This document shows, piece by piece, positions 36,822-64,000 of a stretch of DNA of 64,000 bases. Source of the stretch: Schmidtea polychroa (taxonomy: Eukaryota); assembly GCA_044892525.1 (NCBI GenBank), contig CM097885.1, forward strand, positions 26,600,001 to 26,664,000. The letters are read 5' to 3'. Made by a program: the position numbers and the translations under genes. A model generated the notes under the pieces. The model searched no databases. It was not told the DNA's origin and saw only the letters and a program-made list of their open reading frames with translations. The stretch's first letter is position 1. Each line of letters opens with the position of its first letter.

Positions 36822-39016
36822 ATCAATCACTTTTATGCCAAATTTTTGTGACAAAATTTCCAAAATCGATAGTAAGCATTGATCTTTATTTGTATATTAA
36901 TTGTTTAATTATATAGATGGTATTTTAAATTTATTTTTGCTTAAAATTTTTTTTTGCGATGTATGAGTGATCAACGGCGTACTGGTATTCCTGCGTCGTT
37001 GTTCAGTCCTGCATCCAATTTATTAAAATCGTTATTAACAAGACATGCAGACACGCATTATCGTTATTATAGTGATATTTATTATATGATTTCCTTTTGT
37101 TCGGGTCAGCCGGAGGTCGAACTACTTCATGGTCCTGCCATGGAGTTAGGTCGAGGAAACCCTCCGCCTGACTCTTCGTATTTATTTAAGGTCAGCCGTA
37201 AATGGTTGACTTAGCACACAACACTAAGGTTTGTGGACGTGGTCACAGTGAGGCCATGAAAGCAATATTCTTCCCGACTCATTGCGTAATATACAATTAA
37301 ACTCAACACTTAAAATCCTGAACAATAACTCTACACTAAGGTTCTAATTTGAGTAGAGCTCGTACCTAAAATTACACAATTCTACACTCACATTAATGTA
37401 GCTAGTTGATTCATAATGGTAATTTCAATTATACTTAGACATATGCCGAACTAGATTTTGTAGTAAGGATCTTTGATAAAGTAATAGAAAAAAGAGAGAT
37501 ATTCGGCATACGTACAGGTATAACTTGATCTAGATATGTTGATTCCGAGTAAAGATAGACATTTTAAATCTAGCTCCCACTTTAAAATGTTTGTAAATGT
37601 GTAGGCTCTTAGTTGTAATATTCTTGTTGTTAACTATAAAACTATAAGTTATAAATAATTACGATAGCTAGGTACAAACCACGTCGATCCTGAAAATGTA
37701 AATTGTTAATGGAGAAAGTCTGATCAGAGATAGTAGTAAACAATTTTCGTATAAAAATCAACTTAGGATTGGTTACAGATAGGCGATAGACGCGCTAGAA
37801 CCCTGAAGTTTAATCCACAAATAGGACCAGGAAATCTGTAAGTACTGCGGAAAACAATGTTGATCATAGAAGGAAGTTGTAAGAAGTATATTCCGTCGAC
37901 TAAAAATTTCAAATTATAAAGTATGAAAATACGAATTACAAAAGTATAAATTTTAGATTATAAACTTATAAATTATAAGTTAAGCAATTATAACTTATAA
38001 AATATGAATGTATAAATTTCAAAATATGAAATTAATTATAAATTACAAGATTGTAAATCCCTAAATGGAAAAATTTTAAATTATAAATCGAAAATTATCA
38101 AAGTATAAATTATAAAACATGAATTTATAATTCTAAAACATGGGATTATAAAATTATAGTTATCATAATCCTGATCATTTCCCTTGTTATTACTATTAGC
38201 AGTATCAACATTATCATCACTATTAGTATTATTATTCTTATTATTATTATATTATTATTATCATTATTATGAATATCATAATTAGCATTATTATTATTAT
38301 CATCATTATCAGTACCATTATAAAAATTTATTATTATTCTTGTTATTACTATTATTAGTATTATTATTATTACCATTATTAAAATTTATTATTATTCTTA
38401 TTATTATTACTATCATTGCTATTATTAATATTATTATTATCATTATTATTATTATTATTAGTATCGTTATTTCATTGTTATTATTATTGGTATTATTACA
38501 GTTAACTACAAAAAATCGATATCCCAATCCGATATCGATCACCTGGAAATTTAGAAATTAGCAAATTAAATAAATTACTTGTATGCAGAGCAAACCACTC
38601 ATAACGAGCACAACCGAAGGAAAGGTAAGCAGACGAAGAGCTTAGTTCGTTGCTAGTACCTGTCGCCCCAGCGTGCCCGAATTTAGTGGCCTAAGAATGA
38701 CGATCAAAAAGGAAAAAATTCACATTTTATTAATATGTAAATTAAAATTTATAAATAGTAATTAAAATTACTACTCAGTGGTAAACAAAATTTTGAATGG
38801 AAATGATTAATTTAAACAAACGAATTTTGACGAAAATTTTTTTTTGTGTGTTTGTTTTGATAAAGTAGGAAATCTTATTCCACTGCTCCTAAACTTATAG
38901 ATGGTAGTCTTAAAATAAAATATTTTTTTTTTTAAAGGGAAAAAGGGTCAACAAAATCTTGTGGTTGACGTCGTATCTCAATCAGTATAGAGGGGCTTGA
39001 TTATTATTTTGTAGAA

Positions 39017-39382
39017 ATGTCCTACTCTGACAGCGATAGCCACGAAGAAGCCGACCGACAGATGCTTACCAGACTCCGTACACGGTACATATGGCACCGT
39101 ATCCATGATTGGAATCGGGGTTTGGACCTCGACAACTTTGGCCCAGTAATCAGGAGTGGGCCGGAGCCGGACGCTCCGGCGTGGGTAAAAACAGAGCCCA
39201 CAAACGATTTTTTGCAAGAGGCCCGCGACCGAGCGGCCATCGAGGTAGAAGCAGCTCAGATGCGACTCAAGAAGATCGAGCTACAAATCCAAGCAGAAAA
39301 AGAGGGAAAAACCGTGGAGGACCTAGAAGAGGCCGAGGCAACCCCGCGGAAGAGGGGAAGGCCTCGCAAGCGACTGAACTGA
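39017..39382 (+). CDS. LTR-encoded 121-aa protein with C-terminal AT-hook
   Basis: Short coiled coil followed by TPRKRGRPRKR (canonical AT-hook). GC-rich coding-like island with acceptor-like ttttgtag 2 nt before the ATG and AATAAA at ~39473. Confidence 0.65.
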   Translation: MSYSDSDSHEEADRQMLTRLRTRYIWHRIHDWNRGLDLDNFGPVIRSGPEPDAPAWVKTEPTNDFLQEARDRAAIEVEAAQMRLKKIELQIQAEKEGKTVEDLEEAEATPRKRGRPRKRLN

Positions 39383-39592
39383 CTCATCGTCAAAATTTTG
39401 TTTTTTGCAAATTAACATTCAGTTGCGATTTTATTAAACTTTGATTTTAGTGATAATTATTTCAGTCCTTTTAATAAACCATCTTGTGTATTGCGTGCTT
39501 AACATCCGAAACTATGTTTATTTATAATATTGATTTTATTTTATAATTGAATGAATAGTAGGCTGCAAGAATATAATCGTTGAATTTATCTA

Positions 39593-40063
39593 GTGTTCAG
39601 ACTATTGGAAAATCTGCGAAGAGATAGGGCAGAAGCTCAAAAACAGTCCGAGGAACTCCGCATACGAGTAGACAAGCTCAAGGGACGGTGCCGGGAACTA
39701 GAAAGCACCTGGTTTAGTCCCGAGGATATGAAAAAGAAGGTGGCGCAGGTCCTTCAACTGCAGACTCAAGCCGCGCAGGATCAGATGGAGATCCGGGCAC
39801 TGAAGCTCCAGCTCCGCGCGCTAGAAACCGAGCGAAATGAACAAGTAGTTCACGGAGCCGCCATAAGCCAAATCCGGCCGTTGACCGTGGAACTAGCAGC
39901 AAAATACCCCCCGGCCGCGAAAGAGAAACCCAAAAGAAAGCGGTTAGGCCGAAATATTCGGGAAAAATTGAAGAAAGCTAGACTGGCCGAATACGAGCGA
40001 CAAGCAAATTTGTCACTAGCAGCTGCGACGAAATTGGCCAGTCCTACCAATAAGCCTGTTTGA
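39593..40063 (+). CDS. LTR-encoded coiled-coil/basic protein (~156 aa, start uncertain)
   Basis: GC-rich open frame with heptad-like segments and basic KPKRKRLGR. There is no ATG at the 5' end, and it is preceded by AG acceptor candidates. Confidence 0.55.
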   Translation: MFRLLENLRRDRAEAQKQSEELRIRVDKLKGRCRELESTWFSPEDMKKKVAQVLQLQTQAAQDQMEIRALKLQLRALETERNEQVVHGAAISQIRPLTVELAAKYPPAAKEKPKRKRLGRNIREKLKKARLAEYERQANLSLAAATKLASPTNKPV

Positions 40064-40469
40064 ACTTATATTCGGTTTTAGGTGTTTTGTAGTATTTTTA
40101 TGTATTGTGGTAGTCTTCAAATAATATGTTCCTTGTTAAAATACTGCACGTTTTGTAGTGATAAAATAATGACTAGTACAGTTTATGATTGCCTGGGAAA
40201 TGAGAGTTTGTGCATAAGGTTGGGAAAACAATTTTGATAAAGGGACCTGAGAAATCGGACACACACCTTCTATCGGTAGTCCGTGAACCCACGGAGTACT
40301 CGACAACTATAGTGCTTTGATGCGCTCACTTTTTGCGAGTACTCAACCCTTGGTACAGTACCAACGTTGATCACTCAACGGGTACCAAGCGGAAAAACAA
40401 TGTTGTATTTTGGGTTACGCTGGTAACAGCACTCAATCATTCAACCACCAGTAACCCACCATACAAATT

Positions 40470-40487
40470 TGGGGGCTCAGCCGGGAT
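40470..40487 (+). promoter_or_regulatory. Primer-binding site, tRNA-Pro-like
   Basis: tgggggctcagccgggat matches the tRNA-Pro PBS TGGGGGCTCGTCCGGGAT at 16/18 and lies just after the LTR end. Confidence 0.85.
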
Positions 40488-63532: not shown

Positions 63533-63564
63533 TCGAAGGGAGATGTTGCCTGTAAATAAGAATG

Positions 63565-63623
<59 letters not shown>
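63565..63623 (+). repeat. Poly(A) tract (59 nt) in an intergenic spacer
   Basis: Uninterrupted A run 33 nt after the 63532 stop. Confidence 0.9.
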
Positions 63624-63625
<2 letters not shown>

Positions 63626-63708
63626 AAAACCAAATAAAAATTACAAAACCAAAAAATTCAGAATAAAAAGAAGACAAAAGGAAATATGATATGTATATTT
63701 TTGTAGAT

Positions 63709-64000
63709 ATGAATTATTTAAAAGAAAGAGAATCAACGAGTAACGAAGGAAAGTCAAACGACCAACCTGAACAAAACCAGGATATGATACCAATCAAACA
63801 AGAACCGATGAAATATTATAGCAATAAATGGAGAGTCAGCAAGAAGTTGTTCAAATTAAAGATTGCAAATCAAAATGTAGAGATTACGAGATTGAGGCAG
63901 CATATTGTTCAATCAAGACGATTAATAAACACTGTCAAGCAAGAAATTTTGAGGGAAATAAAGGAATCGAAACGAAAAGAGACAGAAAATAAAAACCTGA
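63709..64000 (+). CDS. Further accessory ORF, open to the window end (not in the ORF track)
   Basis: ATG at 63709 after tttttgtag-at. MNYLKERESTSNEGKSNDQPEQNQDMIPIKQEPMKYYSNKWRVSKKLFKLK... runs 97 codons without a stop. Confidence 0.7.
   Translation, partial: MNYLKERESTSNEGKSNDQPEQNQDMIPIKQEPMKYYSNKWRVSKKLFKLKIANQNVEITRLRQHIVQSRRLINTVKQEILREIKESKRKETENKNL

Follow-up and report, generated by a model that had tools for sequence, protein, structure and literature searches.

To our knowledge, Burro-type elements are the largest long terminal repeat (LTR) retrotransposons known. The present analysis concerns one element of this kind, which lies partly within a 64,000-nucleotide (nt) stretch of Schmidtea polychroa DNA (contig CM097885.1, positions 26,600,001 to 26,664,000; hereafter the window, to which coordinates refer), and the question addressed is how nine or ten separate frames come to be expressed from an element of 34 kb. 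Like Burro/GYPSM1, the giant gypsy-like element of planarians as characterized in the available part of PMC6431247, it exceeds 30 kb, is bounded by LTRs and occurs in hundreds of copies; a frame of about 4,800 amino acids (aa) in the order Gag-MATH-Env-protease (PR)-reverse transcriptase (RT)-RNase H (RH)-integrase (IN)-ankyrin, with Env between Gag and protease, is found in most copies, and BIR, RING and TRAF accessory genes are present. The likeness is one of description, not of identity to Burro1, and no Pfam match at E 0.01 was obtained here for the BCL2-like, Ubi2/SUMO-like or dUTPase-like (ORF1) motifs, whose published detection used HHpred. An IAP-like Burro accessory protein has been reported to protect planarian stem cells (Lee 2026, as cited in the accessible text of PMC13465017). 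No description of Burro splicing was found in the literature covered, including the available parts of PMC13465017, PMC11410931, PMC10899757 and PMC5832876 (Grohme 2018, Lee 2026, Rossi 2014 and Cheng 2006 lay outside this coverage); PMC8532177 makes no mention of splicing, and PMC6431247, as far as available, refers to splicing solely in other contexts and contains nothing on accessory gene expression in its section on Burro.

The mechanism favored below is of a known kind, proposed here at an unusual scale and in an unusual element. In HIV-1 and in the adenovirus major late unit, one leader is spliced to many acceptors. Complex retroviruses and adenovirus share with the arrangement proposed here one promoter, a strong 5' donor and an acceptor ahead of each accessory gene, and foamy viruses, as described in part of PMC3694450, likewise carry a donor within the LTR, 5' of the LTR poly(A) signal. 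The present case differs in that the element is of gypsy type, with about nine acceptors over 26 kb and ATGs 0-5 nt from the AG; unlike in complex retroviruses, probable poly(A) signals lie in most spacers and Env forms part of the polyprotein instead of arising from a spliced RNA. Flatworm and nematode operons resolved by spliced-leader (SL) trans-splicing offer a second comparison (PMC8629364 and PMC12582326, in the portions available): there, too, genes of one strand are set apart by short spacers, each with a poly(A) signal and then an acceptor near the start codon, but many sites here would place the SL AUG out of frame, and no SL addition is seen in contigs. Two retrotransposon precedents are Cer1, a gypsy element of C. 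elegans whose 2.4-kb spliced mRNA carries SL1 but which, with a single SL site, does not form an operon (PMC3315495, in part), and the Env-bearing Tor3a of Oikopleura, in which a downstream gene is expressed from a spliced LTR transcript; in Tor elements there is one downstream gene only, and Tor3b/4b use an internal promoter (PMC4402516, in part).

The element extends from position 36140 to L011:6216 (labels of the form L0xx denote other stretches of the same genome, L011 continuing the element beyond the window end) and measures 34,077 bp. Its length above 30 kb, its multi-kb LTRs (4,322 bp each, 99.95% identical) and its 4-bp target-site duplication, GAGC, are those of Burro-like elements, and by its sequence it is a young, Burro-like giant gypsy LTR retrotransposon. 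Against the genome, a 901-nt piece gives 436 candidate matches; identity is 99-100% for the 40 of these that were scored.

An earlier note, made from the letters of the window alone, proposed that every ATG-initiated accessory open reading frame (ORF) of this region starts 0-3 nt after a TAG resembling a splice acceptor. All seven listed contexts are indeed present, at 39017, 41185, 58563, 59108, 60673, 61934 and 63709, with TAG-to-ATG gaps of 2, 0, 2, 1, 0, 3 and 2 nt, respectively. The word "every" is too strong: when the first ATG of each frame is taken strictly, TAG precedes 6 of 9 accessory frames, or 7 of 9 if 63709 is allowed. Specifically, a 111-aa ATG-initiated LTR frame at 39728, omitted from the note, lacks a YAG within 3 nt; the in-frame ATG at 63691 comes ahead of 63709 in this copy, although 63709 is the first in two related bodies; and the ORF at L011:553 begins gtaAAG/ATG, with AAG instead of TAG. 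Even so, the frequency far exceeds background. Among the element's other ATGs, TAG precedes 10 of 143 in non-coding parts (7.0%) and 21 of 490 in coding parts, the binomial probability of at least 6 in 9 against the non-coding background is 8e-6, and shuffling of the 60 nt ahead of each site yields 0.07-0.12 expected per site. The T-rich context described by the note is modest (4-8 T in the 12 nt 5' of TAG at the listed sites), and, of the 580 YAGs in 44347-64000, the 16 richest in T include three of the five in-window 3' sites. Elsewhere in the genome, a 597-aa host-type intronless ORF at L036:1960 begins just after a TAG, as does a HEAT_PBS host-type intronless ORF on the minus strand of L012, whose copy in the window (24319-25218) has TAA at that place.

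A held-out test was provided by relatives taken from the same genome, comprising diverged LTRs (types A2, A3, C, D, D2 and others), related bodies, and a smaller family, B; L088 and L089 (no element body), L102-L105 (interrupted) and the C52 loci (decayed) gave no counts. Among 12 other LTRs, 10 carry a YAG 1-2 nt 5' of the ATG of the LTR-ORF1 homologue, six as TAG and four as CAG; the exceptions are L040, which has no YAG, and L084, which retains the TAG and has no ATG there. The LTR-ORF1 homologues are 28-72% identical in aa sequence and the LTR lineages mostly agree at 22-52% of the 40 nt upstream, so that ongoing selection is needed to keep the YAG fixed; its presence in all four independent held-out lineages has a probability of about 5e-5 at the 8.4% YAG background. 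A further acceptor, absent from the earlier list, opens LTR-ORF2: YAG/TG is found in 12 of 12 LTRs (7 CAG, 5 TAG), and the conserved residues of the frame begin at the junction, 5' of the first ATG. In family B (about 13.5 kb, 40-54% pol identity), the single accessory ORF is likewise preceded by tatttCAG and 2 nt in B1 and by ttttTAG and 5 nt in B2. The seven body sites are retained in bodies A2 and D, which adds little because those bodies are 90-99% identical (84% in the RING region of D); the TAG of the RING ORF persists in both despite a differing upstream spacer in D.

Interchange of TAG and CAG argues against a role as a stop codon, and the possibility that the TAG serves as a stop codon for reinitiation was rejected since CAG substitutes for it in relatives. 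Together, the fixed position, the T/C exchange at -3 and the free spacing between AG and ATG are what is predicted of a 3' splice site and not of a stop codon, an assignment that is well supported by these comparisons. The TAG-ATG motif is thus a real, selected feature, and the YAGs ahead of the accessory genes are likely to be working 3' splice sites.

The note's donor-like AAG/GTAAGC at 38624/38625 is also present. On a rough consensus matrix written from recall, it scores 7.1 bits, the highest of 1,080 GT sites in 36140-64000, and it lies 392 nt before the ATG of the first acceptor. In LTR types C and D the top-scoring donor stands 622-658 nt ahead of this ATG, giving positional counterparts in two other LTR types, though not in all, and speaking for cis-splicing. 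Twenty of 20 LTR copies that lack GT at this donor have GC at +2, none having GA or GG. GC-AG is a tolerated splice variant, and T to C is also the commonest kind of change, which offers an alternative reason for these variants. Ten elements (L060-L071 and 8 more places) carry GC for GT at the donor in both LTRs. In a search covering exons that start with G, no spliced DNA copy with GA or GG after the donor was found, and all four internal deletions examined coincide with short direct repeats instead of splice sites. Two other possibilities were tried and rejected. A shared donor between the primer-binding site and gag (40698, aaa/GTGAGT) is not kept in A2 or D, and for an intron tail copying exon 1 no fitting exact repeat of at least 14 nt (GC at least 20%) exists in the seven LTR and two leader regions scanned, with none at all in the present LTR. 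Families B1 and B2 (L026:5522-5557, L023:861-896) keep a segment of about 34 nt, AAG/GTAAA...TTTTAG, just 5' of gag, and its conserved GT could be the major donor of that family.

The mechanism that we favor, with a probability of roughly 0.55, is cis-splicing from a common LTR leader combined with a poly(A) site for each gene. A single LTR promoter, with transcription starting 5' of 38624, would give rise to one mRNA per accessory gene: a short LTR leader ending at the predicted donor would be cis-spliced to one chosen acceptor, each message would end at a poly(A) signal in the following spacer, and the unspliced RNA would serve as both genome and polyprotein message. The short distance between AG and ATG would keep stray AUGs, of which the non-coding parts of the element could supply 143, out of the 5' untranslated region, and a donor located 5' of the LTR poly(A) site could, by analogy with foamy viruses, suppress premature cleavage in the 5' LTR. 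Gaps of 0, 1, 2, 3 and 5 nt between AG and ATG reveal no frame constraint, and a non-coding leader therefore fits. The leaders added by flatworm SL trans-splicing end in AUG (PMC12582326, in the part available). Spacers between the same-strand 3' genes measure 148, 89, 140, 82, 176 and 76 nt, all within the 300 nt taken as the limit for operons, and A[AT]TAAA and TGTA[ACT]ATA each occur in five of the six, the latter resembling what we take to be Pumilio or CFIm elements. Each accessory gene may, by these signals, have its own 3' end, which fits alternative splicing with alternative polyadenylation and fits flatworm operons too.

RNA evidence consists of assembled contigs from six runs, none recorded as RNA. 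X8, the closest run (0.92 of words shared), was compared over 38505-44700, and the 3' array was compared with X1-X4, related-strain runs of about 95% identity that are RNA by guess; contigs drop rare forms. An X8 contig covering 38596-39490 ends in 21 A, 12 nt after an AATAAA, and the poly(A) site so defined is probably the R/U5 boundary. An X8 loose end at 39593 agrees at 23 of 23 nt with a host sequence that C4 carries in four copies, GTATGT coming next in each. This host exon ends TTG/GTATGT (L050:610/611), 2,464 nt 5' of a same-strand LTR fragment of the family carrying tctAG/TG, and a second X8 loose end matches the far border of that fragment. Pieced together from these loose ends and not read from one whole contig, the host exon is joined to the homologue of the LTR-ORF2 acceptor at L050:3074/3075 by removal of a GT..AG intron. 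X8 is taken to be RNA because of the poly(A) tail at 39490 and the splicing into this acceptor homologue. The C4 junction shows exonization of the element's acceptor and that LTR fragments can capture host exons; at the locus itself (L050:610-3489, G000:C4), splicing joins the host exon, one of four near-identical copies that form a tandem/inverted block, to an LTR fragment of 500 nt. The start of the X8 contig at 38596 was considered as a donor branch and rejected, as the 20 LTR copies with GC at +2 explain it without splicing; no variant at 38595 was present among 100 of 148 matches listed. Two X1 joints (39290>39592 and 39389>39585) were likewise rejected as splices, having no GT..AG ends and fitting diverged spacers.

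Several observations weigh against cis-splicing from a common leader. No joint or loose end appears at any of the seven listed sites among the contig rows listed, and the junction check suggested by the earlier note yielded one junction, at the homologue of the unlisted acceptor 39593, which uses a host donor and a truncated LTR fragment and not the element's own leader. Unspliced passage, which that note had named as evidence against its proposal, is seen at three of the seven sites: contigs are unbroken across 59107 (X1, X2) and 61931 (X1-X4), and the poly(A)-tailed X8 contig crosses 39014/39015, although any transcript is expected to read through this position in its 3' LTR end. Were a leader junction abundant, contigs ought to be interrupted at these sites; the contigs show neither the dominance nor the absence of spliced forms. 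The acceptor reading is supported by conservation with TAG/CAG interchange and by one RNA junction at a homologue, none of the seven sites being seen spliced. The strong donor, moreover, is not shared by all LTR types, being strong in A and C, moderate in D, and weak or displaced in A2, A3 and D2. Best donor-like sites lie at -622/-628 in type C (7.5, 6.5) and at -658 in type D (4.2), and the best scores are 4.2 in A2, 2.2 in D2 and 1.4-4.9 in L039, L040, L041 and L049, against 7.1 here; in A2 and A3 the nearest candidate, aaa/GTGAGA at about -280 (3.5; 7 of 7 copies), is not the best-scoring site, and D2, L039, L040, L041 and L049 have no clear counterpart. This comparison is weak, and low scores do not exclude use, because the host donor supported by X8 scores only 2.4. 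A TATA-like box is found 3' of the predicted donor, at 38750. Finally, A[AT]TAAA occurs 10 times in 711 spacer nt and 44 times in 18,727 coding nt, and TGTA[ACT]ATA 7 times in the same 711 nt (the 3' spacers 58415-63708 and L011:477-552) and twice in the coding nt, which gives the spacers the character of 3' ends and agrees with a poly(A) site for each gene; the hexamer excess, however, is uncorrected for spacer base composition and partly reflects it. Flatworm operons would be an equally good match for spacers of this length (76-176 nt) that carry poly(A) signals (PMC8629364 and PMC12582326, in part).

These last points lead to the principal alternative, which we regard as possible though clearly less probable than splicing from an LTR leader: a polycistronic RNA would be cut at the spacer poly(A) sites and a host SL trans-spliced to each AG, the LTR donor serving only a first intron or poly(A) control, or, in a mixed case, cis-splicing would serve the LTR and RING genes and SL addition the 3' array. 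Under this alternative, held with the same reserve, the retroelement would contain a true eukaryotic operon of at least six host-manipulating genes (TRAF-like, IAP-like, RING and others), its polycistronic RNA resolved by SL. The spacers match the operon peak of about 100 nt in Macrostomum (PMC8629364, available part) and the class of 300 nt or less in parasitic flatworms, where cis-splicing is lowest at acceptors inside operons (PMC12582326, available part); 103 nt separate the poly(A) site at 39490 from the acceptor at 39593, and acceptors persist through LTR swaps as the strong donor does not. SL trans-splicing is present in Schmidtea (PMC10899757, as far as accessible), a spliced mRNA bearing SL1 is known from the gypsy element of C. 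elegans, Cer1 (PMC3315495, as far as accessible), and a short SL would probably be clipped from the contigs as a tip, given what we infer of the assembler, which would fit unbroken contigs. Set against this, the contig rows listed, which show SL poorly, include no SL-like loose end; an SL-terminal AUG would be out of frame at five of nine sites (39017, 39594, 58563, 59108 and 63709) and at both family-B sites, a point that weighs lightly; a strong upstream cis donor disfavors trans-splicing at near acceptors (Conrad 1993, as cited in the available part of PMC8629364); and the sole observed junction is cis. The choice between SL trans-splicing and splicing from a common leader, which the earlier note left open, is thus tilted toward cis without being settled.

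It is unlikely, in our estimation, that the YAGs are of acceptor type while the genes are expressed mainly through internal promoters, reinitiation or leaky scanning, the AGs being relics of cassette capture or rarely used. The solely unspliced contigs at the listed sites would agree with such routes, as would the env of Oikopleura Tor3b/4b, expressed from an internal promoter without splicing (PMC4402516, in the part available), and the 3' spacers are more than 90% alike among the bodies compared, so that conservation there says little by itself. Such routes are opposed by the YAG position held amid diverged upstream sequence, by the substitution of CAG for TAG, by spacers too short to leave much promoter room, and by the spliced homologue of the LTR-ORF2 acceptor. 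That the motif arose by chance and a selective choice of start codons is very improbable: the omitted ORF, the second in-frame ATG and the eighth ORF with its AAG would speak for it, the strict-rule count speaks against it, and it is already refuted by the four positive held-out lineages.

The mapped sites supply exact junction coordinates that are directly testable in existing planarian RNA-seq, and either outcome would be informative, revealing a gypsy element with alternative splicing of retrovirus or adenovirus grade or a mobile element with an SL-resolved operon. A unit of acceptor, ORF and poly(A) signal would explain the element's gain and duplication of genes; if the operon reading were true, cassettes could be added as plug-in units of this composition and the body would be free to swap LTRs. 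One gene body (90-99% identical; L072-L075 and L084-L086 compared with the window) is joined to at least three LTR types, which denotes LTR swapping; the LTR-ORF1 proteins of the swapped types are 47-72% identical, and over their first ~700 nt types A and D are 90% alike. In a family-B element (L029:1715-9526), the accessory cassette, an acceptor with a 489-aa ORF, occurs in at least three tandem copies with a 2.6-kb period.

Table 1. Features of the giant element and its surroundings, in window coordinates unless an L label is given.
Feature	Position	Strand	Remarks
5' LTR, TG...CA	36140..40461	+	4,322 bp; 3' LTR at L011:1895-6216
Candidate major splice donor AAG/GTAAGC, exon end 38624	38622..38630	+	predicted use
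Acceptor-like TAG	39012..39014	+	2 nt before LTR-ORF1 start
LTR-ORF1	39017..39382	+	121 aa, basic tail, no Pfam match
AATAAA (39473-39478) and poly(A) site at 39490	39473..39490	+	X8 contig tail
Acceptor TAG/TG opening LTR-ORF2	39591..39593	+	missed by the earlier note; homologue spliced in RNA
LTR-ORF2	39594..40063	+	conserved residues from acceptor on, 5' of first ATG (39728)
Primer-binding-site-like sequence	40470..40487	+	from sequence
RING-finger ORF, TAG directly 5'	41182..41667 (ORF 41185-41667)	+	160 aa
Gag-MATH-Env-PR-RT-RNase H frame	44038..54372	+	first ATG 44347, no YAG within 3 nt
Integrase-ankyrin frame	54326..58414	+	separate here; elsewhere mostly part of a 4,791-aa frame
TAG and ORF A1	58558..59018 (ORF 58563-59018)	+	151 aa, no Pfam match; TAG-ATG gap 2 nt, 3 nt in body A2
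TAG and TRAF-like ORF	59104..60532 (ORF 59108-60532)	+	474 aa, zf-TRAF and MATH
TAG and BIR-RING (IAP-like) ORF	60670..61851 (ORF 60673-61851)	+	392 aa
TAG and ORF CC1	61928..63532 (ORF 61934-63532)	+	532 aa, no Pfam match
TAG and ORF CC2	63704..64000 (ATG 63709)	+	continues to L011:476
Eighth 3' ORF, beyond window	L011:553		328 aa, preceded by AAG

The domain content of the frames (Table 1) was assigned by Pfam, which detects CCHC-Gag, MATH, viral fusion glycoprotein, protease, RT and RNase H in 44347-54372 and integrase and ankyrin in 54350-58414, so that the gypsy order PR-RT-RH-IN, a CCHC Gag, MATH, an Env between Gag and PR, and ankyrin are all present. Among the accessory ORFs, RING is matched at 41185, TRAF at 59108 and BIR-RING at 60673, and the other five frames scanned gave no match; a protein homologue search with the TRAF ORF found none at E<=0.001. 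The commonest open frame among the family copies listed is 4,791 aa, and in the present copy an A-run (54326-54372) marks the split of this frame between RNase H and integrase, the same 3,444-aa frame recurring in one other listed copy. Most listed copies have the integrase region within one 4,791-aa frame, so the ATG of the integrase frame is not a real start. Ahead of its first ATG, the gag frame has 103 open codons (44038-44346), and a T-rich TAG lies at 43845-43847, 500 nt 5' of that ATG. ARAGORN found no tRNA within the window, and the primer-binding-site-like sequence is presumably tRNA-Pro-like.

LTR-ORF2 (39594-39727) is conserved from its acceptor in phase 1, 5' of any shared ATG, and may represent a second coding exon or a frame with a GUG start. 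Donor-like sites that are strong and in phase 1 occur at 47680 and 63104. The spacer between CC1 and CC2 contains a run of 59 A (63565-63623). Lastly, a GGAG..GTTG motif stands right after three stop codons (41668, 58420 and 63539) and resembles a polypurine tract followed by an LTR start as in family B; these motifs may be what is left of the ends of captured cassettes, or may prime the plus strand internally.

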